This document shows, piece after piece, positions 114-50,735 of a stretch of 64,000 bases of DNA. Numbering within the stretch: position 1 is the first letter of the stretch; each line of letters opens with the position of its first letter. The notes under the pieces are model-generated. The model ran no database searches, had not been told where the DNA came from, and saw only the letters and a program-made list of their open reading frames with translations. The translations under genes and the position numbers were made by a program. Origin of the DNA: a virus (taxonomy: Duplodnaviria > Caudoviricetes). Where the stretch lies: the IMG/VR virus record IMGVR_UViG_3300028048_000038, positions 256,001-320,000 of that record; one strand, 5' to 3'.

Positions 114-452
114 CTACTTTTTGCGATTCATTGATATTGAACCACCTCTTTTCAATGCAGGACCCATATCAACTTGATTTGTCTTTGCTTGAGTCACATC
201 ACCAAGATTATGTGCTTGACGCATGATAGGTTCACTAAATGCGTTTCCTCCTACTTTTTTTTTATTCTTTCCTCCAAAAGCAGGCGCATCAATATGGTTC
301 TTAGCTTGTCCAGCAGCACCACCTACATTGATACCAACACAGTTTGTAGCACCACCACCGCCAATTTCGCCATCTTCTTTCAATATTCTATATACAGCTT
401 CCTTTACAATATTATGTAAGTCGCTCTCTGTAAGTCTAATTATCTTGTTCAT
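114..452 (-). CDS. putative internal head/cargo protein with N-terminal RLTESDLH tag
   Basis: MNKIIRLTESDLHNIVKEAVYRILKE; late motif at 474-482. Confidence 0.7.
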   Translation of the reverse strand: MNKIIRLTESDLHNIVKEAVYRILKEDGEIGGGGATNCVGINVGGAAGQAKNHIDAPAFGGKNKKKVGGNAFSEPIMRQAHNLGDVTQAKTNQVDMGPALKRGGSISMNRKK

Positions 453-473
453 ATATAAACACATTTATTTTAA

Positions 474-482
474 TATAAATAT
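474..482 (-). promoter_or_regulatory. putative phage late promoter ATATTTATA (one of >15 copies)
   Basis: Same sense-strand motif shortly upstream of starts at 1813, 4663, 12307, 12418, 17602, 24429, 27924, 35576, 37068, 38404/38417, 44876, 44898, 48573, 49531, 54820. Confidence 0.7.
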
Positions 483-514
483 TACACTTATACCAAAATT
501 TTTATTTAGATAAT

Positions 515-542
515 AAAAAAGGGTGATTGACAATCACCCTTC
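515..542 (-). terminator. intrinsic terminator
   Basis: AAGGGTGATTG-A-CAATCACCCTT inverted repeat; A-run gives a U-tract on the minus strand. Confidence 0.7.
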
Positions 543-564
543 TCATTTATTGATAGATTTTATA

Positions 565-978
565 TTACTGTTGACTGTAATTTTGTGTGCTAAACGTTCT
601 TTGTTGAGCAGTTTGAAGTCTACCTTGAACTTTTTTCAATGTCATATCTAACTGTTGTTTAAGTTGTTCAATTGGGACTTCCAAATCTTGTGGGTCTAAT
701 ACCTTTATTGCATTAAGAGAATTCTCTATATTTGCTTTATGCTTTTGCATCATAGAAAGATTGCGTCCTGCTTGAGCTGTATTTTGAATATTTTGCCCTA
801 AATTTTGGATACCTTGTTTTGCTTGTGCAAATTTGTTTCCTACAGCTTGTTTTCCAGCTCCCCATAAAGCACTCCATGCCCCTTCATCCATACCATTTTC
901 CTTAAGGTATACTCTCACTGCATCCTCAACAAGCATGTGAAGGTCTTGTTCTGTCAATTGAATTGGTTTCTTTTCCAT
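565..978 (-). CDS. putative internal head/cargo protein (tag + Gln-rich helical region)
   Basis: IQLTEQDLHMLVEDAVRVYLKE...MDEG. Confidence 0.7.
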   Translation of the reverse strand: MEKKPIQLTEQDLHMLVEDAVRVYLKENGMDEGAWSALWGAGKQAVGNKFAQAKQGIQNLGQNIQNTAQAGRNLSMMQKHKANIENSLNAIKVLDPQDLEVPIEQLKQQLDMTLKKVQGRLQTAQQRTFSTQNYSQQ

Positions 979-983
979 ATCTT

Positions 984-1172
984 TTATCCTTCTATTTGTT
1001 CGTTGTTAGTTTCAGTATCACCAGAGGTAATCGGTTCTTCCTCATCAGGTCTGATGTATTTCTTATTCTTAATTTCCTTAACGTCCGAAATAGAGTATGA
1101 GTTTACATCATACATTGTATTATCATCATCAAATCCATAAAAATCAAGAGTTCTTACATTATTTTTTGCCAT
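984..1172 (-). CDS. small hypothetical protein
   Basis: ATG ORF packed in operon. Confidence 0.55.
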   Translation of the reverse strand: MAKNNVRTLDFYGFDDDNTMYDVNSYSISDVKEIKNKKYIRPDEEEPITSGDTETNNEQIEG

Positions 1173-1194
1173 TTTTTTTCTATTTTTATTAAGT

Positions 1195-1590
1195 TTATTT
1201 TACACTGAAATAGTCATTATATAGTTTCCTTATAAATGCTTTTTTCATTGGATTTCCAATCCTCTCCTTATCCTTCATTTCCTTCTTAATCCTCTCAGAC
1301 CAATCATATGTTACGTAATAACGAGATTCTTGCCTTCCAGTTGTTTCATCATATGGTTCATCAATCCTCTCATCCTTGGTGATAATCCCATAATCATAAA
1401 GTTTCTTTCTAAGTTCTCCATTATGAAGTCCACAGCCCTTTAAAAGCTCGTTTGGGACTGTTCCTATGGGGTCTTTGCGTATTCCCTCTATAAACGCAAC
1501 AACGCTGTCGTAAAAGTCTTGAAAAGGTGGTCTTCTGTTGTCCTCTAGGAGTCTGTTGAATACTGCCTCATTGATGTGTATTAACTTCAT
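1195..1590 (-). CDS. hypothetical protein with I-NE...RLLE tag variant
   Basis: MKLIHINEAVFNRLLED; ATGA overlap with upstream gene. Confidence 0.65.
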   Translation of the reverse strand: MKLIHINEAVFNRLLEDNRRPPFQDFYDSVVAFIEGIRKDPIGTVPNELLKGCGLHNGELRKKLYDYGIITKDERIDEPYDETTGRQESRYYVTYDWSERIKKEMKDKERIGNPMKKAFIRKLYNDYFSVK

Positions 1591-10557: not shown

Positions 10558-12012
10558 TTAACTATTTGCCCAATTGTTATTATCATTAGGGTCGATTCCT
10601 TGACGGAGAAGGAACTTACTTGTAACAATCTTATAATCCTTTGGATTGAAGCCATAATCAGCCATGTCAACATCAAAATAGTCCTTCTTAAATTGTCTCA
10701 ACTCGCTTGGGTCATACTCAGCGTAATCCCAACCGTTAACTATCTTGTTTGTTGCCTTGTTTACAGCAAAGTGAGAGTAGTTCTGATTGTTTTGAAATGA
10801 CTCACCTTCTTCAGTTGGATAAGAACACTCGTCATCATCTTCTAGACTGTTTCCAGCCATCTTCTCTTCCCATTCTAACTCATCGCTACCATTCCATTCA
10901 TTTAATTCTTTTTTTTTAGAATTCTTGCTTTCAAAAATATCAATCATAGCTTCATACCACTCTTCAGATTTTCCAGGATATTTTTGTCTTAACCTTCTAT
11001 TTTTATCTAACCAATATTCTTCCCACTTCTTATCTCTTTCATTAGCTAAATCCTCTTGGTATGCTCTATCGTCAAGCATGTCTGTCATACGTCCTTCATA
11101 TTCATCAGCACCCCATTCCCTTAGAATGTTCTTAACAGATTCCATAACTAAGTTTCTTAAATCACCCTCAGTTAGTCTTAATATGTTTTTACCCATAGTT
11201 TTCTTAGTCATTTCTTGTAAATCATTCAAATCTATTTGATATCTTTCTCTCGCAATTGTTCTGAAATCTTGAGGATTTATATCAATACCATCAACTGCTC
11301 TATATAAATTATCGTTGATATAAACTATCTTTTCACCATTAATTGTTGCAGCAATCCAAAGAATTGAATTTGACTCAAAATTGATATACTTAAATTTTAA
11401 ATTGTTAATCTGATTTATATAATCTTGAATTCTTTCCTCTTCTACGCCCATCTTTCTCAATGCTGCAACTCCATCAATTTCACGTTTTGCTTTAAGGTAA
11501 GGTCTAACTTGTTCAGGAGAAAGCTCCTTAATAATATGTCCCTCCTTGTTAATTGCATAAACAACACCTTTTGGTTTAACTCCAAATATGTTTTGAGGAT
11601 TATAAGAGTGAGATTGCAAATCCGCATTTTGACCATTATAAATTTCTGGACCATTTGGACTCCAATTTGTACCTTGTTTGTAACCAACCTTATCAGCTAT
11701 TGGGTCAATACCAAAATTGGTTCTGATATCATTGGCTGAGGCTTTGAATTTGCCATATTTTTGTCCAACGGTAGTCCTGTTAAGATACCTCATGTTATAG
11801 CTAGTAATCTTAACTAAAGCCCCAATTTCTTCTTCACCTCCAAATACAGTGTAATCTGGATATTTCTTCATTCTATTAGTAGCTGGATTTCTTCTACTAA
11901 CAGTTGGAACGTCTAAGTTTGCTCCAGTCACATAACCGATGGTAACGAACTTTCCGTTACCAATCTTATCTAGTATATCAAAAAATTCACTTGATGATGC
12001 AACCCTTCTCAT
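10558..12012 (-). CDS. multi-module putative internal head polyprotein
   Basis: Internal ILRLTEGDLRNLVMESVKNILRE tag; LQE, IFE, LNE sites between modules. Confidence 0.65.
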   Translation of the reverse strand: MRRVASSSEFFDILDKIGNGKFVTIGYVTGANLDVPTVSRRNPATNRMKKYPDYTVFGGEEEIGALVKITSYNMRYLNRTTVGQKYGKFKASANDIRTNFGIDPIADKVGYKQGTNWSPNGPEIYNGQNADLQSHSYNPQNIFGVKPKGVVYAINKEGHIIKELSPEQVRPYLKAKREIDGVAALRKMGVEEERIQDYINQINNLKFKYINFESNSILWIAATINGEKIVYINDNLYRAVDGIDINPQDFRTIARERYQIDLNDLQEMTKKTMGKNILRLTEGDLRNLVMESVKNILREWGADEYEGRMTDMLDDRAYQEDLANERDKKWEEYWLDKNRRLRQKYPGKSEEWYEAMIDIFESKNSKKKELNEWNGSDELEWEEKMAGNSLEDDDECSYPTEEGESFQNNQNYSHFAVNKATNKIVNGWDYAEYDPSELRQFKKDYFDVDMADYGFNPKDYKIVTSKFLLRQGIDPNDNNNWANS

Positions 12013-12286: not shown

Positions 12287-12324
12287 CTTACCTAAAATTT
12301 ATTTATTATAAATATCTGAAAATA

Positions 12325-17664: not shown

Positions 17665-20600
17665 TCATGGATGTGGAACATCGCTTTGTCTTACATTATT
17701 CATGTAGTTATAGCCACTAGCCTCAGAAGATTCGTCTGTTGAGTAATTGGTCTTATAACCAGCTGCTTCTGCCTTTGCTTTAGCCTCTGTATCACTTGGA
17801 CTGTAGTACAAACCGCAATCCCAAATATTACTCAAATATAGACCATTCTGCATAGAATCTATTGATGGTGTAGTTCCACTAGGACCTTCTTGTACACATG
17901 CAATTCTAAGAACGTTGGTATCAGTGAATTCGTTGGTTGTTGGGTCAATGTAATCACCAGTCAAATCATCAATAATTACGTCATCATCGGTTTGTTCTGA
18001 GAATCTACCACGAGAAAGTCTTGCGTGAACTTGCATCTTTCTGTTTGCTCCATCCTCAACCCATTCTGATTCAGTTGAACAAGTCTTTCCGCTTACCCAC
18101 ATTGTGAGAAGTTCACAAATCTGGTCATTAAGCATTTGGTCAGCCTCGTTGAATGAAGTTGCAGCACTGATAATACAAGCGCCTACATATGGTTGATATC
18201 TTGCACCCTCTCCACACTCTGGTAACATTGAACCCTCGCCATAAAGCATTTCATATATCTTATTGGCTTTCTTGTCAATACATTCAACATCGTCTGAAGA
18301 TTCATCTATCTTTGATTCAACTCTAGCTAGATTTTGGTCTAAGATAAAGTCTGCATTACTGAAAGATGTTGCACTATTAGTGTATTTTCCTTGTGGATTT
18401 GGCTCGTATCTATATCCTTCTCCACACTCTTGTCCTATCTGATGACCTAAGACTACATTCTCAAGAACCTTAAGTTCGTTCTTGGTACATTCAGCAGTTT
18501 CCTCTGCTTCGCTCATTGCAGATGAAGAAACGTAGAGTCCGTTATTAACAATCTGAACAGCATTATCTGGTAGGTTTGTTAACAATATACGTCCGCTAAG
18601 TTTGTCTTGTCCTCCAGGTTCTACCGATGGGGTCTTTGTCAACTCTACAGCACTATTCTCAGATGCATTATATGTATCCCACTCATTGAACAACTCTGCT
18701 ACTGGGAAACTAACCGTATGTACACCACCATTACCGTCATGATAGGTTATCACTAAGGCTTTATTGGTTGAATCGTATACAAGACTATCAATTACAGTAG
18801 CACCAGCAAGTTGATACTCCTCTTCTCCTGCTGTTGTAGTAAGCTTAATCTTGTTTGTGCCAGTATCGTATGATAGATGAGCTGTTGCATACAAGCCTTG
18901 ACCAAGTTTGATTAAGTTGTCACCCCCTTGAATCTTCACATTTGCCTTAACCACGTTGTTTTCTTCACTTGGAATGTTGAAGTCGATTGATGTGGTGTCA
19001 TCAAATGTTAGGGTTGCATCGATAATCATCTGTTCAAGTTCGGCATCCTTTGCTTGTCTTGCTTGCGTTTCTGCTGTTAGAGCGTTTGACAAGTTCGTGT
19101 CAGCATTTTCTCTGTTGTTCTTTTCAGTCTCCAATGCCTCTGAAATGGTATTTTCAGCAACTTGTGCTCTTGAAACCTCTTGATTGATTCTTGATGATAA
19201 ATCTGCATCTGCAACTGTTCTGTCAGAAGTCTCGTCAGCAATCTTCTGATAAAGTTCATTATCAGCGTTCTGTGCTCTAAGTGTCTCAGTGACGATTGCT
19301 GCATTAAGTTCGCCTTCCTTGGTTTGCGCCCTAGAAATCTCAGCCTCAAGCCTTGTATCAAGTCTTTGTTCGGTTTCTCTTGCACGTGCCTCTTCGGAAT
19401 CAATCTTGGTGTCGAGTATTTCTTCAGCATTTTCAGCCCTTGATGTTTCATCATCAATAAGATGTGAAAGGTTGTTGATTGATGTCTGTAATGCAGTTTC
19501 AGCACTGATTGCACGAGTGACTTCAGTATCAATCTTAGAGTTAAGAGTGTTCTCTTCTGATTCTGCACGATTGATTTCGCTAGTCAAATCACTTCTCAAC
19601 TGTGCGATTGCACTCTTATTATCTTCAATCTGTTGACCAGATACATAAAGTGCGCCATGCTCATTTTTAAGTATATTGTCATCATGAGCTGTAGTTATAA
19701 CAACCTCACCAGATAGTTTATCCTTTCCGTCAATTACTCTCTGCCTATTGAGTTTAATTGCGCTGTTTGGGTCATTGTACACTTCCCACTCTTGGAAAAT
19801 CTCTCCAAGTGGAATACGGAGTTCCTTCTGTTCAGAACCACTATGATACTTAATGATAAGAGTCTCAGTGGTTGGGTCATATTCCATGCCATCGATTATT
19901 GACACGCTATTAAGCTGAATCTCTTTGCTAACATTCTCAGTAGAAGCATTATCAGATTTTGTAAGAGTCAACTTATTGGTATCAGGATTGTAATTCAAGT
20001 CGATGAAATTATACAAGCCATCATGTTCAAGTCTAAGGGTGTTATTAGGCTCAATTGCGCTTAAGTTAACCTTTACGACCTTTGTAATGTTATCTTCATC
20101 TGAAGAACCAGTAGTGGAAACATCAATTGAATTATCAGTGTTAATGACATCCTTTATACTCTTGTGTGCGCTATCCTTAACAGCATCAACTTCATCTCTT
20201 ACTGTATTACGAGCACCAAATCCATCGCCAATCTCTGTATCAATTGCATCAAGTCTTCCGTCATGCTCAGTATCCTTCGCTTCTGAACGGTCAATCTCAC
20301 CTTGAAGCTTGTCAGCCTCTGAATTAACTTGGTTTTGTAACTGTTCAAACTTGTATGTCACTGTCTCATGTGCATCTGTTGAGAAGCCATTGCCAATTGT
20401 GGTGTCAATTCTACCTTCCTCTCTAGTTGCACGAGCTGTCTCAGAATCAATTTTGTTGTTCAAGGTTTCTTCTGCATTCTCTGCTCTAGCAATTTCCAAG
20501 TTAATCTTATTGTCAAGAGCATAGTCAATTTCATGAAGAGTATCAATCTCTTTCTTAACATTTGAATCCTCACCATGTCTGATATTGTCAGAAGTACCCT

Positions 20601-22029
20601 TTACGAACAACTCATGATTTTTATCAACCAAGATGTTATCTGGGTCATTGAATATCTTTGCGTCTGCTGAAACCTTATCGTTTCCGCTAACCTTTCTAAC
20701 CTTAATGAGCTTAATGTTGTGACCTTCATTTTGAACTTCCCATTCCCAATCACGAATCATGTCACCAATTGGTATTTCAACAAACTGTGTAACTCCCTTG
20801 TTATCCTTATAGGTTACAATAAGAGCCTCCTTAGTTGGGTCATAGTAGATATGTTCAAAAAGCTCAACACTATTCAACAAGATTTCAGTTTTCTTTTCTC
20901 CGTTCTGTCCAGAAGTCTTAAAGACAAGCTTGTTGTCCTTAGATACATACTCTAGCTTAGATGAAGCGAAGAAACCATCTGTCTTTTCAGTGATTATATT
21001 GTCACTATCGCTTGAAAGTTTAATGTTTACAAGGTCATCGAGAGTATCTTTTACATTTGATAGCTCACCGTTTCTATAATAAACTATGTTAGATGCCTTA
21101 CCATCAACGTACAAGTATCTTCCATCACTTGTTCTCTGTAAGATGTTTGTTGATTTCTCCTTATCTAGAGGGAGTGGTTTGCCTTGCTCATCAAACTCTT
21201 CGTCCTTAATTCTTACGTTAGCTTTAAGAACGTCTTGCCAAGGTTCAAGTCTTGAATATTCTTCAGTACCATACTTAACCTCTTCCTTGGTAAGAATGAC
21301 TGGAGACTTAGCGGCATCGCCAATAACATCCCATTCAGCGATAAGGTATTTGCAGTCCACAACAATTTCATCACCCTTCTTCATGTTGAAATGAAGTGAC
21401 TCGTCTTGTACACTATATCTTCCACTGATTAGATGGTCATCTGAAATGTCAACTGTGGTGGCGGAAAGAGTGCCATCGCTGTTACTAACAGTAAATGTAA
21501 ACTCTTCATTTTCCTTATCATAGTCAAGGTTAACGTACATGAATATACCGTCTGGTGTCACCATCAAGTTATCCTTATATCTTACATCATTGAAAATGTA
21601 AGAATCTGCCACCTTAACATCGCCACTTACATAAGTGCCATCATCTGTTTTATTGGCATATAAATTCAATGTCTCACTATCAAGTGGTACAATAGTAAGT
21701 GATTTTAAAGCCTTTTCAAGCTCCTCTTGCAAATCAGCAATTTCTTCCTCTGTTTTATCAATGTCGATGATACAGAATCTGTTCTCACTGTATTGAGTTC
21801 CCTCATTTGTGACAGAACCAATTGCCAAAATGATATGTGGATTTGTCTCATCCTCTTCATTCTTATATCTGAGAACTGTTGGCTCTGAGAACAAAGAATA
21901 CCCAAGAGTTCTGTCATTTACAGAAAGACCACTATCAGCAAATCTTATCTGACTCTTAATGTATCCAATAGCATCTTCCCTAGTCTCGAATACATTGCTG
22001 TGATGTCTAAATTGTAATCTATTATTCAT
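17665..22029 (-). CDS. large fibre-like virion protein (repeated beta modules + E..RA..E coiled coil)
   Basis: About four YD....L.I.Y...IP...EW modules; 18-aa-period coiled coil; two ECGEG.RY.P repeats. Confidence 0.7.
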   Translation of the reverse strand: MNNRLQFRHHSNVFETREDAIGYIKSQIRFADSGLSVNDRTLGYSLFSEPTVLRYKNEEDETNPHIILAIGSVTNEGTQYSENRFCIIDIDKTEEEIADLQEELEKALKSLTIVPLDSETLNLYANKTDDGTYVSGDVKVADSYIFNDVRYKDNLMVTPDGIFMYVNLDYDKENEEFTFTVSNSDGTLSATTVDISDDHLISGRYSVQDESLHFNMKKGDEIVVDCKYLIAEWDVIGDAAKSPVILTKEEVKYGTEEYSRLEPWQDVLKANVRIKDEEFDEQGKPLPLDKEKSTNILQRTSDGRYLYVDGKASNIVYYRNGELSNVKDTLDDLVNIKLSSDSDNIITEKTDGFFASSKLEYVSKDNKLVFKTSGQNGEKKTEILLNSVELFEHIYYDPTKEALIVTYKDNKGVTQFVEIPIGDMIRDWEWEVQNEGHNIKLIKVRKVSGNDKVSADAKIFNDPDNILVDKNHELFVKGTSDNIRHGEDSNVKKEIDTLHEIDYALDNKINLEIARAENAEETLNNKIDSETARATREEGRIDTTIGNGFSTDAHETVTYKFEQLQNQVNSEADKLQGEIDRSEAKDTEHDGRLDAIDTEIGDGFGARNTVRDEVDAVKDSAHKSIKDVINTDNSIDVSTTGSSDEDNITKVVKVNLSAIEPNNTLRLEHDGLYNFIDLNYNPDTNKLTLTKSDNASTENVSKEIQLNSVSIIDGMEYDPTTETLIIKYHSGSEQKELRIPLGEIFQEWEVYNDPNSAIKLNRQRVIDGKDKLSGEVVITTAHDDNILKNEHGALYVSGQQIEDNKSAIAQLRSDLTSEINRAESEENTLNSKIDTEVTRAISAETALQTSINNLSHLIDDETSRAENAEEILDTKIDSEEARARETEQRLDTRLEAEISRAQTKEGELNAAIVTETLRAQNADNELYQKIADETSDRTVADADLSSRINQEVSRAQVAENTISEALETEKNNRENADTNLSNALTAETQARQAKDAELEQMIIDATLTFDDTTSIDFNIPSEENNVVKANVKIQGGDNLIKLGQGLYATAHLSYDTGTNKIKLTTTAGEEEYQLAGATVIDSLVYDSTNKALVITYHDGNGGVHTVSFPVAELFNEWDTYNASENSAVELTKTPSVEPGGQDKLSGRILLTNLPDNAVQIVNNGLYVSSSAMSEAEETAECTKNELKVLENVVLGHQIGQECGEGYRYEPNPQGKYTNSATSFSNADFILDQNLARVESKIDESSDDVECIDKKANKIYEMLYGEGSMLPECGEGARYQPYVGACIISAATSFNEADQMLNDQICELLTMWVSGKTCSTESEWVEDGANRKMQVHARLSRGRFSEQTDDDVIIDDLTGDYIDPTTNEFTDTNVLRIACVQEGPSGTTPSIDSMQNGLYLSNIWDCGLYYSPSDTEAKAKAEAAGYKTNYSTDESSEASGYNYMNNVRQSDVPHP

Positions 22030-24819: not shown

Positions 24820-25296
24820 TTAAAATGGTATTTTCTTTAGATTTCCATTATTTTCATAGTAGAACATTTCTCCGTTTTTAACAACAATGTTTGGCCACTT
24901 CTTATCATATCCGTGATAGTTTGCTCTACGAGCACGAACCCACATTCCAGCGTTTAGAACCTTCTGCTGTATTGGACTCAACTTGTCTTGGTTATCATAA
25001 AGCCACTGCATTTCCTTCTCAGAGAAGATATGGTCTTGTGACTCATGTTCTTTTAGAATATTCTTTACAGCTTCCATCACCATTCTGTGAAGGTCGTTCT
25101 CGGTCAATCTTATGATATTTTCCTCAACTTTCTCTGGAAGTCCCTTATGCTTTGTCTCAGCAAAATCCTTGACATCACTCATTGACATTCCATCTGCTGC
25201 TTTCTTTATCTTGCTGCTAGCATCCTTCATTTCACCCTTCTTATAGGCATCTACCATTCCGAAGAATCTCTGTTGCGCTTTACTTTTGCTTGGCAT
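24820..25296 (-). CDS. DUF3008-like domain + internal RLTENDLH tag
   Basis: MPSKSKAQQRFFGMV...DFAETKHKGLPEKV; IIRLTENDLHRMVMEAVKNILKE. Confidence 0.65.
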   Translation of the reverse strand: MPSKSKAQQRFFGMVDAYKKGEMKDASSKIKKAADGMSMSDVKDFAETKHKGLPEKVEENIIRLTENDLHRMVMEAVKNILKEHESQDHIFSEKEMQWLYDNQDKLSPIQQKVLNAGMWVRARRANYHGYDKKWPNIVVKNGEMFYYENNGNLKKIPF

Positions 25297-25323: not shown

Positions 25324-25938
25324 TTATTTAAGCTTAACTCTTATTAAAAAATCTTTCAAACAAGCATTCACATCATAATCTATATCTCTTACTATTGAAT
25401 ATAAATCATCACAGTCCAAATTCTGCGTCTTCAAGAATTCAACATCTTCATCATCACCATTTCCAAATGCTCTCTTTAGTTTCCTATTAAATGCATTCCC
25501 ATATGTAGGTATATACCCTCTGAAACGTTTTCCATCCCAATATATGAAAAACAATATAGGACACTCCCAATCACCGCCAGCGTAGCATTTCAGATATGTT
25601 ATACCTTTCCGTGTTTCCACTTTACCGATTGCACCAAGATTTTCGCAATCATAGTCTATCTTAGATATATCGTCTAGCAATGTTGACAATTCTTTAGGCT
25701 TATTGTTCTTGTAATTGTTACAAAACCTATATACAAAACTATCTAAGGAAAATTTTCTATCATCTTCTTTATTTCGTTCATAAATCTCTTTAATTTTTTC
25801 CTCAAATTCTTTTGCTGAAATCTTTGCTGCCGTTCTACCGCCATTAGGAAGTTCAACATCTAGATTAACAACATACCTTTTTCTACCGCCCTCTATAATT
25901 AATCTCAACTGAGATTCATTTAACATTATTCTTTTCAT
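25324..25938 (-). CDS. putative cargo protein with NESQ tag
   Basis: MKRIMLNESQLRLIIEG. Confidence 0.6.
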   Translation of the reverse strand: MKRIMLNESQLRLIIEGGRKRYVVNLDVELPNGGRTAAKISAKEFEEKIKEIYERNKEDDRKFSLDSFVYRFCNNYKNNKPKELSTLLDDISKIDYDCENLGAIGKVETRKGITYLKCYAGGDWECPILFFIYWDGKRFRGYIPTYGNAFNRKLKRAFGNGDDEDVEFLKTQNLDCDDLYSIVRDIDYDVNACLKDFLIRVKLK

Positions 25939-27901
25939 ACTTGTAATTATTCTCAATTATAAGTTGTTCCATAAAACAGTTATAAATTTTGAATGAAGAA
26001 ATATAACCGATAAAGGTTCCAGCAAAGTTCTTCTCAAGTGGATAAACCCTCGTTGGGTTTAACATATAGTTATACTGTATTGTTTCTGCAAGTCCTTGTG
26101 TTCCACCTCCAAGTGATATGTTATATGGTACACCTTCTTGCTTATCATATATCTCATTGAGAGCCTTTAGATTAAGCATCGGTAGTTCTTTAGAGATATA
26201 AACCAATTTTCCATTGACATAGAACATCAATTTCATCTTTCCGAATATAAATGAGATTCTCACATTAACCGTTGTCCATTCACAATTTGGTATTACATTC
26301 TCAAATGAATATCCCTCAATGATGCTTGTTTTGTCTCTTCCTTCCTTTTCACAGTCTATTGTAAGCATCCTATAACCTATTTCACCGTTATCTGTGATTC
26401 TAAAGGCTAGAGCGTTGTTATAGATATCATCATAAGGATTATATTCGTTTGCTGATTGGTCACGAAGTTCGTCTATGTTTGAAACGGTATAACCAGTCTT
26501 GGTGCGATTCATTAAGATGAATAGATTACCCTTAAATTTACTCTTGCGTCCAGCAAACATAAACTGTGTTCCTTCAACCCAGTTTGATACAGTCTTACCA
26601 GTCTTTGTTCTATCGAAGAAAAGGAATTTATTATCTGTATAGAAATAATATTGATTTGCTTCTGATAATTTAAAGCCATTGTCAGTGTAATATTCAAAGT
26701 CTGTAATATCAAGTTCTGGCTCAATATAAACCACAGCCTCTTCAAGTGACATTACCTCTCCGTTATCGAATATATAATCCTCACCAAATTCAGTTCCCAT
26801 CTTCAATGGGTTTGGGTCAAATACGTTTTTCTCTTTTGGTATCCTCTTATATGAGATTGGACAGCCACACCCATGAAACCAAGGCTTCAATATATATTCT
26901 TCCTCATCTGATTCTTCTCCACAGCACCAAGTAAGTCTCTTAAACGGAAGGTCACTATCACAAGGTATAACCTTTTGTTTCTTATCTGATACAACTTCAA
27001 TATAATATGACATATCATCCCAATCACATGGGTCATCCTCATAATATGAAGGGTCATAGTATTTGTAGTCGGTATAATCGCCAAGTTCGAATGGGTCATA
27101 CCCATCAAACTCTGGATTTGGGTCATAAAAATTTCCTATAATATAATCCTTTTTATCAATTTTACCATCTTCCACGAAGTCATCAACGCCTAGTTCATAG
27201 CAATCCTCAAGACCATCTACATCATCCTTATCATAGAGATAAATCCATTTATTTTCTGCCCTAGTGCCAACATAGAAGAATATACCCTTATTTTGAGGAT
27301 ACTTGTCATTCAATGTCTTGTCAGATTCCTTCTCCAAGTCGCATCTTTTCAAGGTGAACTCTAGATTAAGTGTATCTCCATGCTCAAATATTGTTGGAAG
27401 TATTTGGTATTTATCACATTCAGTCTTGAAAAAGCCTTGATAGAAGCCTCCATTAAGCTTTACGCATCCATTTTCCTTGTACAGTGGATAATCATACTGT
27501 AAGGTACTTCCACTAACGGCATGAAGCTTTAATCTGTAGTCATTCTCTTTTATCTTGAAATTGTTTTCTTGGAATATCTCCAAGAAATCTTTATTGGTTA
27601 TTCTGTCTTTTCTGAAGGTGAAGAGTCCGTTATCAACCCCAAGATATGTTATATTATATAAGGTATAACCAAGTGCCAATGATTTGTCCCACACATATCT
27701 GCTTTTACCATAAATCCAATTATCAGAATCGAAACATTCTTCATCTGACAAATCTATATATGATATAAGACATTTATCATACAAACCATCGTTAATCTTA
27801 AATGAGCCATAAGAATCCTTGTTAACGAAAAAGTCCCAATACTCATCCTCGTTAATTCTCAAATATAGATTATTGTAATTGTTTACCTTTAAATTTGCCA
27901 T
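25916..27901 (-). CDS. putative virion structural protein (beta-sandwich/LamG-like C-terminus)
   Basis: WTTVNV...LMFYVNGKLV...ISLGGG...FIGYISSFKIY; late motif upstream. Confidence 0.55.
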   Translation of the reverse strand: MANLKVNNYNNLYLRINEDEYWDFFVNKDSYGSFKINDGLYDKCLISYIDLSDEECFDSDNWIYGKSRYVWDKSLALGYTLYNITYLGVDNGLFTFRKDRITNKDFLEIFQENNFKIKENDYRLKLHAVSGSTLQYDYPLYKENGCVKLNGGFYQGFFKTECDKYQILPTIFEHGDTLNLEFTLKRCDLEKESDKTLNDKYPQNKGIFFYVGTRAENKWIYLYDKDDVDGLEDCYELGVDDFVEDGKIDKKDYIIGNFYDPNPEFDGYDPFELGDYTDYKYYDPSYYEDDPCDWDDMSYYIEVVSDKKQKVIPCDSDLPFKRLTWCCGEESDEEEYILKPWFHGCGCPISYKRIPKEKNVFDPNPLKMGTEFGEDYIFDNGEVMSLEEAVVYIEPELDITDFEYYTDNGFKLSEANQYYFYTDNKFLFFDRTKTGKTVSNWVEGTQFMFAGRKSKFKGNLFILMNRTKTGYTVSNIDELRDQSANEYNPYDDIYNNALAFRITDNGEIGYRMLTIDCEKEGRDKTSIIEGYSFENVIPNCEWTTVNVRISFIFGKMKLMFYVNGKLVYISKELPMLNLKALNEIYDKQEGVPYNISLGGGTQGLAETIQYNYMLNPTRVYPLEKNFAGTFIGYISSFKIYNCFMEQLIIENNYKYEKNNVK

Positions 27902-27923: not shown

Positions 27924-27937
27924 TATAAATATTTATA
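27924..27937. promoter_or_regulatory. palindromic bidirectional late promoter
   Basis: TATAAATATTTATA between divergent starts 27901 and 27958. Confidence 0.7.
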
Positions 27938-27957: not shown

Positions 27958-28206
27958 ATGAAAATAATTAATTTGAATGAATCTCAGTACAGTAGGTTGT
28001 TTGAAAGCGTTACAGACCAAGACTTTGGAACTAGTACAGTTCCAGAATATGATGGTTTGGATAAGGTTGAGCTTCAGCCAACAATAACTGACAAAGATGG
28101 AAGTCCTAAGAAGGCTAATCCAATGGATACTGAGAAATTCGCAGATACACAATCTCCACAACAATGGGGTGCTGTAGGTGGTAGGAAATCATCAAATACA
28201 ATTTAA
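27958..28206 (+). CDS. small protein with NESQ tag
   Basis: MKIINLNESQYSRLFES. Confidence 0.65.
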   Translation: MKIINLNESQYSRLFESVTDQDFGTSTVPEYDGLDKVELQPTITDKDGSPKKANPMDTEKFADTQSPQQWGAVGGRKSSNTI

Positions 28207-28208: not shown

Positions 28209-29627
28209 ATGGCATTATTTTTAGAGGATTCACAGAAAGTAACTAGAAGGAAGGCTCCAGTTCCATTGAAGGATAGACAATACTATAGTGCATGGTATAA
28301 TGCGCTAGAGAAAGTCATGCCTAAAAATAACCTTAAAAACCTTAAGAGTCTTGCATCTACCAAGGCATATAATAAAAAAGGTAACGATAATTTGAACGGT
28401 AAGAAACAAAATACTAGCTATGTTAGCGTTGAGGATGCAAAGAAGAGAATGCAGAGAATGAATCCTAACGATATAACACAAGGTGGACAAAAGGCTTATA
28501 ATTTCTACAAGAAGACTATAGAGAGGGCTAGAAGCCAAGCAGAGGTATCTCCAATAGAGCCTCCAAAGCCTACCGCAAGTGTTAAGCCTAGCAATGTTAA
28601 CATCACAAAACAAAGCGTCCCTACTGCAAAAATTAAGACTGAGGGCAGAATTATAAAGGAAGAATTTGACAACAATCATATATTTTGGGATTATCTAAAT
28701 GATTACGGTGCTAATTACGTTTTTAATGAATTTTTGCAAAATCCAAATGGTAAGGAGAGTTGGGGCGTATTGATTAACCCAGATATGTATGCAAAGGCAT
28801 TAAGGGAATTCACACGTTTTGGTAAATTAACAACCTTTCCTACTAAATACATCTATCAATGGATGGGAATTATCATGAAGAATACTGCGATATTAAATGC
28901 TAACACTGAAATAGCAGGTCACAGTAGTAATTTCCCATTTGAGGAGTTTGAAGATTTCTTAGTCAGTTACTATGGCACTGATAGGGACATAGATGTGAAT
29001 TACGACCATACGGTGAGGATAGAGATAACACCAGAGGAAGTTGTTAAATTATGTAATGACGAGCCTATCCGTATAAATGAAGATGCTGTTGATAAATACG
29101 GACAAACGTATTTCCCTTGGGTAACTCAAGGTGAGGCTGAATTAATGGTAAAAAATCAAGAGTTACAACGTCAAAGAGAAAAGTTCCAGCAAATGTATGG
29201 CGATTTGGGAACATATGTTGAAAATTATAACAAAGAAAACAAGAATCGTGAGCAAATAACGATTGACTACCAAACAAACAAGATTTATTGGGAATTGGAT
29301 ATGTTTGAATTGTTATATCAAATTGGAATAACAGATGAGTGGATGCAGATGCCAGATGGAAGTGATGCGTTTTCTGACTTTGGCATTGAGCCAATTGTAA
29401 ACATTATTTCAGAATATGATGAGGACTTGCCACCAGAGAAGGTATTGGTTTTGGTTAACAAGGTATTGGATGTATATCACCAGAGAGGTGATTTAAGTTC
29501 AATATTTGTGCAAGGTGGTTCTAAGGCACTTGATAGGATTGCCGAGGAAATTAAGAGAAATAATAAGAAGGTGTATATCACCGAAAAACAAATATTAAGG
29601 TTACAAGATGGCAAACACAATCGATAA
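28209..29627 (+). CDS. multi-module putative internal head protein
   Basis: FLE, IIKEE, INE, IAEE sites; C-terminal KKVYITEKQILRL. Confidence 0.6.
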   Translation: MALFLEDSQKVTRRKAPVPLKDRQYYSAWYNALEKVMPKNNLKNLKSLASTKAYNKKGNDNLNGKKQNTSYVSVEDAKKRMQRMNPNDITQGGQKAYNFYKKTIERARSQAEVSPIEPPKPTASVKPSNVNITKQSVPTAKIKTEGRIIKEEFDNNHIFWDYLNDYGANYVFNEFLQNPNGKESWGVLINPDMYAKALREFTRFGKLTTFPTKYIYQWMGIIMKNTAILNANTEIAGHSSNFPFEEFEDFLVSYYGTDRDIDVNYDHTVRIEITPEEVVKLCNDEPIRINEDAVDKYGQTYFPWVTQGEAELMVKNQELQRQREKFQQMYGDLGTYVENYNKENKNREQITIDYQTNKIYWELDMFELLYQIGITDEWMQMPDGSDAFSDFGIEPIVNIISEYDEDLPPEKVLVLVNKVLDVYHQRGDLSSIFVQGGSKALDRIAEEIKRNNKKVYITEKQILRLQDGKHNR

Positions 29628-35181: not shown

Positions 35182-35556
35182 TTACACATTTTCCTTAAGG
35201 TATTTGTTAATTGATTCTGTAATGGCTTTATTAATCTTACCTTCAAATTGTTTAGCCTTTTCCCAAGAAATAGTGTTATCTTCAGCATTACCTCTAGGAC
35301 TCAAAGCCTTACCAAATTCTTCTCTATCCTCTGGAAATGCTCTTCCAACTTCCTCTTGGTCTGCAAATTGTCTATCAAGACCTCTTGATATTGGATTATC
35401 TGTTCCAATGGTTGCTGCTGCACCCAAGCCAAGTGCTGCGCCAAGTCCTGCTGTCTTAAGGGCATCCTTGCCCCAACCTTCTTCAACTGTACGTCTTACA
35501 GTTTCTTCTACGATTTTATGTAAATCTGATTCTGTTAATCTTATAATCTGTGTCAT
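35182..35556 (-). CDS. putative cargo protein with RLTESDLH tag
   Basis: IIRLTESDLHKIVEETVRRTVEEG; late motif 35576-35584. Confidence 0.7.
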   Translation of the reverse strand: MTQIIRLTESDLHKIVEETVRRTVEEGWGKDALKTAGLGAALGLGAAATIGTDNPISRGLDRQFADQEEVGRAFPEDREEFGKALSPRGNAEDNTISWEKAKQFEGKINKAITESINKYLKENV

Positions 35557-35586
35557 AATTAAATATGTATTTTAATATAAATATCA

Positions 35587-37114: not shown

Positions 37115-37654
37115 TTATGTTGTAAATTCTGAAGAATCAACACTATAGCCTTCCCACGTAACCCATAAACTAGTTGTACCCCATAAGCTATGGGCATTAG
37201 CATATCCATTGTTAATTGCATTGAGAACAAAATATTCAGAGTGTTCTGGCGTAACTTGTACCATAATATAGTCTCCTTTTTTGGCATCGACATTAAGTTC
37301 TTTTAATGTCTCTGGATAAACACCAATCGTTATCTTTCCTGGCTTCATATAAGTGCCAAGTTGTTTTGACTTATCATATGATTTTAATTCTGGTTCTTCA
37401 ATCTTATATGTGCATGGAATTTCAATTGGTGTCTTGAATGCCACGTTATCTGTATCTGTTTCCCCATACACAGCATCTGTCTGTGTTTGCGAAGCATCTA
37501 CTTGATAGAGCACAACAGTTTGTCCCATATCTTGTTCGATATAGTCCTTTCCTATTTCTCTCTCCAATGCAAACATTTCCGCATCGTAGAATAGACTGTT
37601 TCTATTAATAGGAACACGTCTTACATTATTTGTATTAAACTTTAAACTAGCCAC
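37115..37654 (-). CDS. putative neck/head-closure protein
   Basis: GQTVVLY, DAVYGE, P.EIP, GDYI pattern; GTG start; tentative. Confidence 0.5.
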   Translation of the reverse strand: MASLKFNTNNVRRVPINRNSLFYDAEMFALEREIGKDYIEQDMGQTVVLYQVDASQTQTDAVYGETDTDNVAFKTPIEIPCTYKIEEPELKSYDKSKQLGTYMKPGKITIGVYPETLKELNVDAKKGDYIMVQVTPEHSEYFVLNAINNGYANAHSLWGTTSLWVTWEGYSVDSSEFTT

Positions 37655-38396
37655 GATAATATCCCTCCCAATTTTCTAAGTTCATTCCAGCATCGAGAAT
37701 TACAATCATTGGTTTGCCATCTCTATTCACGATGCCATAATTCTCTGGTTTAGTTAAATCACCAATTTGTGTGTTCATGATGAACTCCTTAAGTTGTTTC
37801 AACCAAGGGTTTTTCCTTATATATTCTTCTATTTCCTTATGATAATAACCTTCGCCAATAGTATAATTTGTCTCAAGATAGCATACTATATCATATACGT
37901 CATAAGGAACTTCATTATAACTTCCTTTTGGATTTTCAAAGTAATTAATATATTCAGAACCCATTTGATTATAATACCTATAATAGAATGGTATATCTAT
38001 AATCTTTTCAAAATCAATGTCTTGTGCTGGTACAACATTCTCACAAATTACATATGAAAAATTCTCATCATTTCCGAATATTCTAACCAACAATGGAGAT
38101 TGTGTGTCTTCATATAGTTGGCACTCAAGACGATTCTGAGCTTTACCAGCTTCATATCTGCCATTCGCCAACTTTAGTACTAGGTTATCACTCAACATGA
38201 AGACACATCTAGAAGAGCCTTGCGCAACTGGTTCTCCTAACCATTTCCTACAATATTCAAATTGTAACTTTCCATTATATTCCTCATCAGAAAAAGCGTC
38301 ATTTCCAAGCACAGATAGTTCGTCAAATGAGAAACCTTCCCTATATGCTTCAAATAATCTTTTCTTTTGAGATTCGTTTATTTTAACTATTTTCAT
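37647..38396 (-). CDS. kinase-like protein with NESQ tag
   Basis: MKIVKINESQKKRLFE; QGSSRCVF..VLKLA, QN..E, DL...NYG, VILDAG. Confidence 0.6.
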   Translation of the reverse strand: MKIVKINESQKKRLFEAYREGFSFDELSVLGNDAFSDEEYNGKLQFEYCRKWLGEPVAQGSSRCVFMLSDNLVLKLANGRYEAGKAQNRLECQLYEDTQSPLLVRIFGNDENFSYVICENVVPAQDIDFEKIIDIPFYYRYYNQMGSEYINYFENPKGSYNEVPYDVYDIVCYLETNYTIGEGYYHKEIEEYIRKNPWLKQLKEFIMNTQIGDLTKPENYGIVNRDGKPMIVILDAGMNLENWEGYYRG

Positions 38397-42413: not shown

Positions 42414-42668
42414 ATGGTTGAACCAAAATTTCAAAAGGGAGATTATATAATCAGTAGAAATAGCGGTAATATGGGTATCATAAAAGGTATTACAAAAAAA
42501 GGATACTACCAATTCGAGGCATATTATGGTGCAATGTTTGATGAATTAAAAGACGTTAAGGATAAGAACTATGATTTACAAATTAATTACCAGAAATTCT
42601 ATGAACTATGTACGGAAGATGAAAAGAAAAAACTCAATGAGATAATAAAAGAAAAAGGAGAGAATTAG
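42414..42668 (+). CDS. hypothetical protein
   Basis: 84 aa, PKFQKGDYI start. Confidence 0.6.
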   Translation: MVEPKFQKGDYIISRNSGNMGIIKGITKKGYYQFEAYYGAMFDELKDVKDKNYDLQINYQKFYELCTEDEKKKLNEIIKEKGEN

Positions 42669-43060
42669 TTTCTCTCCTTTATTTGCCTTATTTTATCTTT
42701 TTCAGAATTGAAACCTTTGGCAAATCTATCTTGCATCTTTAAATTTCCATTTCTTTTTTCTTTGGCATAATTTGACACATTATAATAATCATTTATGTTT
42801 CCACTTGTTGATTTTCTTGCAGCCAATCTGCCCAATAGACGTTGACCATCTTCAGTGTCTCCTATTTCATTTAATACTTTATTAACAGTTTCTTTTACAA
42901 TATTATGAAGGTCAGATTCTGTTAATCTGATTATTCCCTTTTTCATATTCTTTGACTCCATTTGTATGTTATTTTCATTCTGTTCCTTTGAAGCTTGATA
43001 CATTTTTCCAAACCCCATAGCTTGCGCCAATTCAAACCCATTCTTAAAAGGTAGTGCCAT
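42665..43060 (-). CDS. putative cargo protein with internal RLTESDLH tag
   Basis: IIRLTESDLHNIVKETVNKVLNEIG. Confidence 0.7.
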   Translation of the reverse strand: MALPFKNGFELAQAMGFGKMYQASKEQNENNIQMESKNMKKGIIRLTESDLHNIVKETVNKVLNEIGDTEDGQRLLGRLAARKSTSGNINDYYNVSNYAKEKRNGNLKMQDRFAKGFNSEKDKIRQIKERN

Positions 43061-47722: not shown

Positions 47723-47819
47723 GTATTGTTTGGAAAGCTCAATTACTTCCTTCATATCTTTCTGAAACATTGGTATTCCATCTTCTGGAAGATAACTGTC
47801 ATAGAAGAACAATATCTTC

Positions 47820-48104
47820 TCAAGTTTCTTTGTTAATGTGTTCTTGGTCATTTTGTGCTAATTTAACGAATTTCTCAAGTACATTATCATTGCACACCGA
47901 ATTGATGCTAACAAAGTAATGTACCTCAATCGATGCTATTGACTGAACGATATTACCCCTCTTTTGATATTCCTCACGTATAAGACGTTTAATGGCGTTT
48001 CTAAGTGATTTTCTGCTAGTGGCACGTGCTGTTATATTCTTGTTTTCCACTAGATTTATCTCACCATCTTTGTCAGAAACGTAATATGATATTTTGTAGT
48101 TCAT
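47820..48104 (-). CDS. hypothetical protein (early cassette)
   Basis: 94-aa ORF flanked by short coupled ORFs. Confidence 0.55.
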   Translation of the reverse strand: MNYKISYYVSDKDGEINLVENKNITARATSRKSLRNAIKRLIREEYQKRGNIVQSIASIEVHYFVSINSVCNDNVLEKFVKLAQNDQEHINKET

Positions 48105-48255
48105 TTTGCAAGTTTCATTACCACGTTGCCCAAATTTGCTTTCATACCCTCAGTTGATATACCAATAGAAACTCTACCATCGTTACCAACTACTATACTT
48201 CTAACGTTTTTCTTCATAACCCCTTATAATCGTTTAAAATACATTATTAGATTTG

Positions 48256-48468
48256 TCATGATTCAAATAGAACTAAAATACAACACACGATGAACCAAAT
48301 GACCACCACAACAAGGGCACAGACAAGCCATACCTCAATGCCAAACCAAATAATGTCACTGTAGGTCATTGCTGTCATGCCGACTTTCTTAAGTGCAATG
48401 AGAACACCAACAACTACTGCTGGAATTCCAACACTAGAACTAGCATAAGCTGACTTATTATTATCCAT
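48256..48468 (-). CDS. small two-TM membrane protein
   Basis: Two hydrophobic segments; first gene after promoter. Confidence 0.6.
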   Translation of the reverse strand: MDNNKSAYASSSVGIPAVVVGVLIALKKVGMTAMTYSDIIWFGIEVWLVCALVVVVIWFIVCCILVLFES

Positions 48469-48502
48469 TTCTCTATAATTTGTTTTTTATCGTTTCGTGC
48501 TG

Positions 48503-48534
48503 CAAAGATACGAATAAATTTAGAAATGACCAAA
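48503..48534 (-). promoter_or_regulatory. Bacteroidota sigmaA-type promoter
   Basis: TTTG-N20-TATCTTTG. Confidence 0.8.
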
Positions 48535-48683
48535 TTTTGAACTGAAATATAACGTTTATTAACGTTTTGGAGATATTTATATAAAAATATGAGATGGTAT
48601 GGATGAAATCATTAAATATTACATAATCAAAAGCGCACTAGTTCTTCAATGGGCTAATGCGCTTTTTTTCTAAACTAATTTTT

Positions 48684-49493
48684 ATGGGAAAAAAGAAAAA
48701 CTTGAAGGAAAGCATCACTGAATTGGAAATGGAATTCATTGAGCAAAAGATGAAAGGAGACTGTGCTCTCAATTATCTTACATCGGAAGGGTTATGTTCT
48801 AAATTAAAAACACTTGGTTATAAAATAGATATTAAGTGTAAAAACGAAAAACAAAAAGAGTTCTTGAAATTACTTAAAAACAAAAATTACCAAATATGCT
48901 TTGGAGTTGGCTCACCAGGTACTGGAAAATCCTATCTCTCACTTGCATATGCACTTAAGGAGTTAAAGGACGGTAATTATTCAAACATCATTATGATGAT
49001 ACCTACGGCTCCAGCAGGAGGATTAGACCTAAACCTAGGCTACCTTAAAGGTGATTTAGAAACCAAGATACAACCATATCTTGAGTGTGATGAACAGACA
49101 ATCACAAAGATTTTAAGGAATAGTGGAAATGCTGACCCGTACATGACAGCACAATCCTTAATAAGTAATAACTACATAAAATACGAATTCATTAATTTTG
49201 CATTGGGTAAAACATTCGATAATGCCTTAATATGTGTCAATGAATGTGAACAATATACCAAGGAAAATCTAAGATTGATACTTACAAGATTGGGTGAAAA
49301 TAGTAAAATGATTTTAACTGGTGATTCTCTACAAACAAACCGTAGAGATATTGTTACAAAAAAATCAGAAAGTGGACTACTATACGCAATAGAACATATA
49401 GGTAAATTAGATGAGGTTGGAATCACAGAGTTTACAAGAGAAGACATAGTAAGAAATCCATTAATTACAAAAATACTAGACAATTGGGATTAA
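48684..49493 (+). CDS. phoH: PhoH-family ATPase
   Basis: GSPGTGKS, LGYLKGDLETK, GKTFDNA, LTRLGENSK, GDSLQ, DIVRNPL. Confidence 0.9.
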   Translation: MGKKKNLKESITELEMEFIEQKMKGDCALNYLTSEGLCSKLKTLGYKIDIKCKNEKQKEFLKLLKNKNYQICFGVGSPGTGKSYLSLAYALKELKDGNYSNIIMMIPTAPAGGLDLNLGYLKGDLETKIQPYLECDEQTITKILRNSGNADPYMTAQSLISNNYIKYEFINFALGKTFDNALICVNECEQYTKENLRLILTRLGENSKMILTGDSLQTNRRDIVTKKSESGLLYAIEHIGKLDEVGITEFTREDIVRNPLITKILDNWD

Positions 49494-49556
49494 TAATAGA
49501 TATAAGGGTAGGTATTTTCCTACCCTTTTGATATTTATAGAAAATATTGTTTTATA

Positions 49557-50735
49557 ATGGATTGGAACGAATTTTCACAAAGATTAAATGACAAAATGGA
49601 TAAAACATTTAAGCCAACCGTAGAATGGATGACAGCCAAATATACTGAAATGAATGATGAGTTGTTTGGTGGTGAATTGGGCGATTGTAGTTTTGCCATC
49701 TTTACTACTGGTCGTGGTTCTGAAGGTGGTACTCTTGGTTGGTTTAAGATAACTGGACGCAACATCTATATAAATAGATACAGCCGCAAAATGTATAAGA
49801 ATAACGGTTGGGAAAAGATAGACATTGATAGGAAGAACTTTGTTGGTTTATGCCAGCCTAGAATAGAACTGAATGGTAACTATAGCGGAACTGAGCATTC
49901 TTTCTTAGCTACATTGGTGCATGAAATGTGCCACTACTACACCTATATGTACGGCTATGCCCCAAAACAAGGGCATGGAAGAGAGTTCAAGGAGATTGGC
50001 TATATCGTATCACAGCGTTCAAATGGAATGTTTACCATACAAAGACTTGCGAGTGCCGAACAGATGACTGAAATGGAGTTAAACGATACAATGAAGGCTA
50101 AAAGGGCTAAAAGGTTAGCAAACAAAAAATCATCTGTAACCGCCATTATCGTTTTCACAAAAGAAGGAAAAGTCAAACTCACAATTACTTCCAATCAATC
50201 GCTAGTAAACATGATTTCAACTAGTGAGAAAGAAAGAGGTGATAATGTTGTTACAACAAACGATGCTGAAATTATAGAGTATTTATTCTCCAAGGGATAC
50301 AGAAAAAATATGAGAACATGGAGATATTGGAGTCTTGAAGATAAACCTTGGCTTGGTGAGCTGAAGAGTATGTTGCCAGAGGTTAGTGGGGAAACATTAG
50401 GAATAAGAAGACCAGCAGCGCAACAAGTTCCACCTAAACATACAAAAATGATATTCTCAATCAAAACAAGTAACGGAGTATTCGAGACTGAGGTAACAAC
50501 TCCAAACGATTTAAAAAGGAAACTTAGAGAAAGATTTCCAAAACTTAATGATGAAGCAATAGAAAGATTGTTCAATAATAATGCTAACTACAGAATGGTT
50601 GAAAATATAATGAATACAAAAACAATTATTAAGGAAGTTATTGAAGAATTCATGAGTAATGAGATGAATAATGATGCAATTGCAATAGACCCAGATATGA
50701 ACTTGGGGTTACAGTCACCGTTAGAAGGTGAATAA
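49557..50735 (+). CDS. SprT-like zinc metalloprotease
   Basis: N.ELFGGEL, TLVHEMCH, HGREF; late motif 49531-49539; C-terminal IIKEVIEE helix. Confidence 0.75.
   Translation: MDWNEFSQRLNDKMDKTFKPTVEWMTAKYTEMNDELFGGELGDCSFAIFTTGRGSEGGTLGWFKITGRNIYINRYSRKMYKNNGWEKIDIDRKNFVGLCQPRIELNGNYSGTEHSFLATLVHEMCHYYTYMYGYAPKQGHGREFKEIGYIVSQRSNGMFTIQRLASAEQMTEMELNDTMKAKRAKRLANKKSSVTAIIVFTKEGKVKLTITSNQSLVNMISTSEKERGDNVVTTNDAEIIEYLFSKGYRKNMRTWRYWSLEDKPWLGELKSMLPEVSGETLGIRRPAAQQVPPKHTKMIFSIKTSNGVFETEVTTPNDLKRKLRERFPKLNDEAIERLFNNNANYRMVENIMNTKTIIKEVIEEFMSNEMNNDAIAIDPDMNLGLQSPLEGE

Follow-up and report, generated by a model that had tools for sequence, protein, structure and literature searches.

In phage T4, the internal proteins IPI-III and Alt carry a CTS (capsid-targeting sequence), which is removed by the gp21 prohead protease (PMC9026906, reviewing Mullaney and Black 1996). 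The CTS reads M-K-T-Y-Q-E-F-I-A-E (PMC8442874), and it has been suggested in a review that it lets T4-like phages load varied proteins (PMC9026906). Here we describe a 24-residue peptide, the long tag, that recurs on otherwise unrelated proteins encoded by a 64,000-nucleotide stretch of an uncultured tailed phage – bases 256001-320000 of IMG/VR record IMGVR_UViG_3300028048_000038, hereafter the window. The whole record spans 409,537 bp, has inverted terminal repeats and is ~33% G+C. On balance we lean towards reading the long tag as a functional counterpart of the T4 CTS, a peptide for targeting to the prohead core and for processing, in uncultured jumbo phages of the T4 type with Prevotella-group hosts.

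Like the T4 CTS, the long tag is a short N-terminal peptide of unrelated proteins in a phage with a gp21-type protease, with an M-K-x start and an L/I-x-E end. It differs in length (24 residues versus 10-19), in having three Glu triads rather than one and in its much stronger conservation. Across thousands of protein families it further occurs inside proteins, in more than one copy per protein and at C-termini.

Head and ejection propeptides of the giant phages phiKZ, 201phi2-1 and SPN3US are cut at A/S/G-x-E by a gp21-like protease (PMC7411985, PMC5694885). Their setting in jumbo phages with numerous proteins inside the head, the cut after Glu by a gp21-related protease and the proposed prohead-targeting role at N- or C-termini match the tag as we read it. 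However, they reach ~130 residues and are protein-specific, with no common portable sequence, whereas here one cassette is reused.

Phage-type polyvalent proteins are assembled from shuffled effector modules and are encoded near virion genes; packaging, processing and injection have been proposed for them (Iyer, Burroughs, Anand, de Souza, Aravind 2017; PMC5512222). Their typical modules include minimal kinases and ADP-ribosyltransferases, and copies have been captured by host genomes (PMC5512222). Proteins with several tags resemble them in that one polypeptide, with its gene close to virion or late genes, holds several disparate shuffled modules. In polyvalent proteins, though, an embedded zincin-like peptidase does the processing and no junction peptide is shared, while the junction in tag carriers is a conserved tag that fits the head protease rule. 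No peptidase domain turned up in the carriers, although no search was aimed at peptidases.

Encapsulin cargo-loading peptides address unrelated cargo into an HK97-fold shell, for which a short terminal peptide suffices. The tag would resemble them in this, but they are C-terminal, uncleaved and unrelated in sequence, and they serve a cellular nanocompartment rather than a virus head. By sequence the tag belongs to none of these systems, and it departs from them in length, conservation, triple Glu triads, internal and C-terminal use, fixed-junction role and spread.

A conserved 24-residue tag on unrelated proteins

A sequence-only reading of the window had noticed a recurrent helix at the N-termini of open reading frames (ORFs) 114, 565 and 35182 and inside ORFs 10558, 24820 and 42665. 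All six sites lie where that reading placed them, and they are the only long-tag ORFs in the window, every one on the minus strand. The consensus is K-I-I-R-L-T-E-S-D-L-H-x-I-V-K-E-S-V-x-R-I-L-K-E. Genes were called by a greedy longest-ORF procedure, and a hidden Markov model (HMM) trained on the genome's own copies was run on all ORFs of the 409.5-kb genome. This full-genome scan, which the sequence-only reading had proposed, recovered 14 copies, distributed over 13 ORFs and scoring 32-56 bits. The best-scoring ORF behind them reached 7.7 bits, and tag and non-tag thus separate without a grey zone. The window copies (window coordinates, as throughout unless marked as genome positions) are as follows.

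375..446, minus strand: long tag at the N-terminus of ORF 114-464 (HMM 56 bits)
898..969, minus strand: long tag at the N-terminus of ORF 565-978 (HMM 47 bits)
11116..11187, minus strand: internal long tag of ORF 10558-12012, residues 276-299 of 484 (HMM 47 bits)
25048..25119, minus strand: internal long tag of ORF 24820-25296, residues 60-83 of 158 (HMM 50 bits)
35479..35550, minus strand: long tag at the N-terminus of ORF 35182-35556 (HMM 32 bits)
42866..42937, minus strand: long tag of ORF 42665-43060, lying internally when the longest start is taken (HMM 54 bits)

The true start of ORF 114 is probably its second ATG (450-452), which gives M-N-K-I-I-R-L. Outside the window, copies occur at genome 20.5 kb (a 711-aa protein with two of them), 244.7 kb, 253.1 kb and 358.1-359.1 kb (three). 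The 711-aa carrier (genome 20535-22670, minus strand) is a string-of-beads protein with two internal tags and a weak DUF5856 match at its N-terminus; its tail resembles DUF3008 by eye. A 16-nt match at window 52151-52166 was set aside as an off-frame chance match.

The tag is widespread in public data. A profile search of 1.84 billion representative proteins returned 5,780 clusters at E<=0.001, 197 of them at E<=1e-10. We analyzed 183 sequences (250 unique tags), 148 representatives, and 179 unique near-complete tags aligned to the profile. Two tag copies are present in 123 of the 183 proteins and three in nine. Over half of the unique tags (139/250) lie within the first 13 residues, typically following M-K-K and usually beginning at residues 3-5, and in 12 of the 183 proteins the tag forms the last residues. 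Pfam recognizes almost nothing in the 148 representatives – YodL once and DUF3008 once, the YodL match being the only catalogued polyvalent-protein domain among them – and ART-PolyVal was not found in the phage genome. No model in Pfam-A, PHROGs v4 or NCBIfam 20 covers the tag in any carrier, and a full-text literature search returned no paper with the tag's core heptapeptide or with DUF3008.

The bodies that bear the tag had been described as unrelated, and with the tag masked the genome's carriers indeed show zero pairwise BLASTP matches at E<0.01. The masked public representatives likewise fall into 67 unlinked BLASTP groups. It could still be argued that the carriers form one fast-diverging paralogue family with a conserved first helix: most are small orphans, BLASTP cannot exclude distant homology, and some have a further G-D-T-x-x-G-Q motif past the tag. 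Such a family leaves little room for tags at C-termini, behind a folded 270-residue domain (ORF 10558) or behind DUF3008 (ORF 24820), or for so many unlinked groups among the masked public carriers. A related proposal traces the similarity to an element at the nucleic-acid level, for example a recombination site, translation signal or antisense target. However, Leu, Thr, Ser and Val codons within the tag differ freely among copies, which points to selection on the peptide rather than the DNA, and no antisense copies were found in the genome. On these grounds we rejected a DNA- or RNA-level explanation, and we give the paralogue and nucleic-acid accounts together hardly any weight.

The Glu triads of the tag resemble head protease sites

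Among the 179 aligned public tags, position 7 is Glu in 178 and Asp in one, position 16 is Glu in 138 and never Asp, and position 24 is Glu in every tag. Position 9, by contrast, is mixed (D 127, E 26, Q 23). The residue two before each Glu-only position is hydrophobic (L5, V/I14 and L/I22), and conservation collapses directly past E24. With Leu or Ile at position 22 in 169 of the 179 tags, the hydrophobic-x-Glu ending seen earlier in the window copies extends to the public ones. The polar positions H11 and S17 are also strongly conserved.

The T4 gp21 protease recognizes L/I-x-E and cleaves after the Glu; processing is blocked when the cut position holds Asp (PMC9026906). As far as sequence can tell, the Glu triads of the tag match this rule.

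Other short elements accompany the tag. About a third of internal tags (public proteins P0036-P0183) have x-E-S-[KR] 6-8 residues upstream, and the tag of ORF 42665 has this element, common ahead of internal tags, just upstream as E-S-K-N-M-K-K. Many public tags are then followed by I-G-D-T-x-x-G-Q. Both elements look like further conserved pieces of the cassette. The E-S-[KR] element lacks a hydrophobic third-last residue and was therefore ruled out as an L/I-x-E site. We had also likened the G-E-I-G-G-G-G-A-T-N that follows the ORF 114 tag to the N-terminus of mature T4 gp23, a comparison dropped because the phage's own capsid protein lacks that stretch.

The tag marks a junction at which modules are swapped

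In ORF 10558 the tag separates a folded N-domain from a swappable middle and a C-terminal module. Most homologues of this protein (88/120) are non-colinear with it, having swapped or inserted modules. In 61 of these 88, homology is lost at query residues 297-306, with the mode at residue 299 (36 cases) – E24 of the tag – and in 14 more it is lost just before the tag. Past the Glu, homologues have differing segments of 0 to ~300 residues, often followed by the same C-terminal module (404-484).

Modules also move between internal and N-terminal contexts. A segment starting L-D-W-K-T-Y lies behind an internal tag and, in a close relative, is a separate gene with an N-terminal tag. Internal tags often have M-[NK]-K directly ahead, as a gene start would, which fits repeated fusion and fission of tag-plus-module cassettes. 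The idea of a mobile label usable at either end or mid-protein is thus borne out to the extent that N-terminal, internal and C-terminal copies occur on unrelated bodies, and the label in addition marks the junction of swapped modules.

An AlphaFold2 model of ORF 10558 has the folded N-domain (1-270) and later modules around the tag, which is predicted to be a lone helix (282-299) ending at E299, with linkers of predicted local distance difference test (pLDDT) <50 on either side. Foldseek and VIA-align searches of the PDB with the N-domain gave nothing usable, and the ESM Atlas returned nothing for ORF 10558. The best named BFVD match of the N-domain is auto-annotated as a PolyVal ADP-ribosyltransferase; the Pfam ART-PolyVal model gives no support, so we treat this name as a lead only.

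These breakpoints would also be expected if the tag were a mere inter-module spacer or cut site, or served string-of-beads proteins as a structural helix, with no address role and with N-terminal copies left over from gene fission. The many proteins with two or three copies and the start-like M-[NK]-K ahead of internal copies fit that account as well. However, a spacer separates nothing at the N-terminus, where 139 of the 250 unique tags lie, nor in the 12 proteins that end with a tag, and conservation of all 24 residues goes far beyond what a cut site needs. We regard this explanation as distinctly improbable.

The remaining window carriers add bodies of different kinds. ORF 565-978 encodes a Q/N/A-rich helical protein. 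In ORF 24820 a DUF3008 domain (residues 4-57) precedes the long tag and matches 157 T4-like cyanophage records, in which the gene adjoins the small terminase gene. Where ORF 24820 has the long tag, two of the four cyanophage genes inspected have a T4-CTS-like M-K-K...I-x-E and a very basic body; this parallel is suggestive but anecdotal. Examples are Synechococcus phage S-WAM1 (L136 4001-5458) and phage S-SZBM1 (L139), and the cyanophage gene product looks like an unannotated internal head protein.

Tag genes accompany head genes and share a promoter-like motif

The phage has T4-type head genes, evidenced by the following genes and by a phrog_207 match.

Genome 356351-357055: S77 prohead protease gene (PF03420, 82 bits at 356501-356953)
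Genome 352613-354631, minus strand: gp23-type capsid protein, 672 aa (PF07068, 213 bits; homologous to the solved T4 gp23)
Genome 354703-356181: scaffold-like protein, 492 aa
T4-type portal (PF07230, 297 bits)

The stretch from the protease gene to the portal gene holds three tag genes (358084-359135), two of which belong to a tight gene chain headed by the protease gene, apparently its operon. In T4, the counterpart position between protease and portal is occupied by the small core-protein genes 67 and 68. The capsid protein matches its Pfam model in two parts (profile 3-48 and 106-356) with ~270 extra residues in between, hinting at a large insertion domain.

A scan of related phages, also proposed in the sequence-only reading, gave the same picture. 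Among 25 tag-bearing IMG/VR contigs, all six complete genomes encode an S77 protease. In 12 of the 13 protease-positive contigs at least one tag gene is no more than ~3 kb away from the protease and frequently follows it directly; on one contig (G009) a relative of ORF 565 directly follows the prohead protease gene.

A motif, ATATTTAT, lies 14-40 nt (mode ~25) upstream of 41 gene starts genome-wide. The genes it precedes include those for the protease, the scaffold-like protein, the portal, a terminase-like protein and several HNH endonuclease-like proteins. Because of these genes, ATATTTAT would be a late promoter. The motif lies 16-34 nt before the start of six of the 16 carriers and of 35 of the 656 other genes (Fisher p=1.8e-4), and 14 of the 16 carriers sit in tight same-strand chains headed by a ATATTTAT-preceded gene. 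Both the placement of carriers in motif-bearing units and the expected co-occurrence with a putative late-promoter motif are therefore upheld. Occurrences at window carriers are as follows.

475..482, minus strand: ATATTTAT promoter-like motif before ORF 114
1814-1821, 12308-12315, 27925-27932 and 35577-35584, minus strand: ATATTTAT before carriers or their chain heads
38405-38412/38418-38425, minus strand: ATATTTAT before carriers or their chain heads
27929-27936, plus strand: ATATTTAT before a carrier or chain head

At 27925-27936, two motifs overlap back to back between the divergent ORFs 25916-27901 (minus strand) and 27958-28206 (plus strand).

A different role for the tag would be as a docking helix for a hub other than the capsid – a phage factor, or a host protein such as a protease, the sliding clamp or RNA polymerase – that gathers many small effectors at one site in the infected cell. 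Strong conservation over 24 residues, including polar H11 and S17, suggests a specific structured interface, and the tag is exposed and unpacked in models. Single copies persist in bacterial chromosomes without a head protease, and many carriers are encoded far from head genes, among replication genes. What docking elsewhere leaves unexplained is why there are three Glu-only positions, each with a hydrophobic residue two earlier, why conservation ends and modules swap exactly at a Glu, and why tag genes flank the protease and have a promoter motif in common with head genes. We consider this alternative, the chief rival to head loading, rather unlikely.

A short leader forms a second class

The sequence-only reading had also described a short form of the tag at the start of ORFs 1195, 25324, 27958 and 37647. 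We found a leader with the pattern M-K-x-I-K-I-N-E-S-Q-x-x-R-L-F-E, the core of which (h-x-h-N-E-S-Q) occurs seven times against 0.07 expected from residue shuffles.

38346..38396, minus strand: short leader (17 aa) of ORF 37647-38396
27958..28008, plus strand: short leader of ORF 27958-28206, 12 of 16 leading residues identical to those of ORF 37647
25888..25938, minus strand: short leader of ORF 25324-25956, which fits when read from the ATG at 25938
1540..1590, minus strand: weak variant in ORF 1195-1590 (I-N-E-A-V for I-N-E-S-Q), at chance level
29559..29624, plus strand: half-tag-like C-terminal end of ORF 28209-29627, at chance level

The short form is thus statistically real. ORFs 27958 and 37647, the bodies of which are unrelated, have it, as does ORF 25324 with the later start, while that of ORF 1195 is indistinguishable from chance. 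It is not a shortened tag: short forms score <=2.6 bits with the long-tag HMM and therefore constitute a second class rather than the same motif. Bridging cases exist, in that a few public long tags read N-E-S-Q in place of the consensus T-E-S-D. Short leader and long tag are probably two peptides of one kind. The K-K-V-Y-I-T-E-K-Q that closes ORF 28209, which had been counted with the tags, is present but scores -1.3 bits, indistinguishable from chance.

The leader of ORF 37647 is nearly invariant over 120 homologues that are otherwise 40-55% identical, making it the family's most conserved part. In the AlphaFold2 model (overall pLDDT 89.6) it has pLDDT 43-58 and is unpacked on a body of pLDDT ~95. 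Taken with this model, its conservation would be the behavior of a linear motif read by a partner.

The 249-aa product of ORF 37647-38396 (minus strand) is predicted to have a protein-kinase-like fold: its top Foldseek hits are all kinases or aminoglycoside/choline kinases, with probabilities up to 1.0 and weak E values. The ESM Atlas returned viral hypothetical clusters only, one with 17% T7-kinase members, which we take as a lead only. A host-modifying kinase is possible from the modeled fold. As the only body identified by fold, it counts in favor of head loading, kinases also being found in virion-delivered polyvalent proteins (PMC5512222).

A proposed role in head loading

If the long tag serves to target proteins to the prohead core and to have them processed, its short strand and exposed amphipathic helix would dock the protein, or each of its modules, onto the scaffolding core during head building. 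The S77 (gp21-type) protease would then cut after the Glu of L/I-x-E triads, chiefly the last one, and a cut at the end of the tag would release the body within the head. With address and cut site traveling as one, a tag-plus-module cassette could work as its own gene, as a mid-protein fusion or at a protein end.

The sequence-only reading had likewise proposed a label that loads diverse cargo into the head for processing and ejection with the DNA. Its portability, its L/I-x-Glu end, the presence of an S77 protease, and the synteny and motif in common with head genes are all observed here. The docking, cleavage, packaging and ejection of tagged proteins are what we infer from them.

Several observations weigh against head loading. 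The tag has no sequence homology to the T4 CTS, with only the format M-K-x-hydrophobic...L/I-x-E in common, and we therefore file it as working like a CTS rather than as a member. Its length is also 2-3 times that of the 10-residue T4 CTS and its conservation much higher, so its partner may not be the scaffolding core. As a pattern, L/I-x-E carries little information and could arise in any Glu-rich amphipathic helix. The tag-bearing contigs come from related phages, so that their shared gene order amounts to conserved synteny, not independent replication, and one of them (G008, 75% complete) has tags with weak S77 hits only and no gp23 hit. A tblastn search with a two-tag protein found no match in 50,697 deposited phage records, and no cultured phage is known to bear the tag. 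Finally, two cultured Prevotellaceae, Segatella bryantii DSM 11371 and Prevotella sp. MA2016, each have one tagged chromosomal gene and no S77 protease.

L104 6932-7195: tagged gene of Segatella bryantii DSM 11371, in a low-GC islet
L108 5795-6823: tagged gene of Prevotella sp. MA2016, in a low-GC islet

In one of these two cases an IS1595-type transposase adjoins the islet. Such host-chromosome genes may be captured phage genes or decoys.

The likely host group emerged from a scan of bacterial genomes with a degenerate DNA pattern, which covers only the commonest tag spelling. Nearly all of its 28 matches are in rumen or gut metagenome-assembled genomes of the Prevotella group, and this concentration points to that group as host. 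A human-gut bin, Prevotella sp. CAG:1092, holds 11 tag copies on phage-like contigs together with a gp23 fragment.

Other genes of the window

For recombination and replication, the window also encodes an SbcC-like protein, a primase and an SNF2 helicase. HNH homing-endonuclease-like genes and many small orphan ORFs are present as well. Two adjacent minus-strand genes, 17665-22029 (1454 aa) and 22053-24347 (764 aa), encode giant proteins with a common phrog_13589 region, accompanied by a Fib_succ_major domain in one and by a KTSC motif in the other. Both are probably fiber or adhesin proteins.

Implications for uncultured jumbo phages

Even if its partner is not the capsid, a motif found in thousands of protein families and absent from curated libraries merits a family entry. 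If the tag does label proteins for head loading, a simple profile search could list what hundreds of uncultured gut and rumen jumbo phages inject. Injected proteins are the first to meet the host and probably comprise factors for takeover and anti-defence, yet identifying them normally takes virion proteomics on phages in culture. The tag would also be ready for use in packaging foreign proteins into phages of Prevotella-group bacteria. T4 cargo loading would here have been scaled up into a cassette system in which modules are joined, split and swapped at a fixed residue.

More tentatively, one conserved cassette may combine address and cut site, and the packaged and injected protein set of a large clade of uncultured Prevotella jumbo phages may evolve by cassette shuffling – a possibility we hold with less than even confidence. 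If so, gene fusion and splitting would cost nothing, and the set would be readable from sequence (at least 5,780 protein clusters). In that case the single tagged genes of hosts might represent cargo that was captured, or even decoys carried into the heads of phages that infect them.

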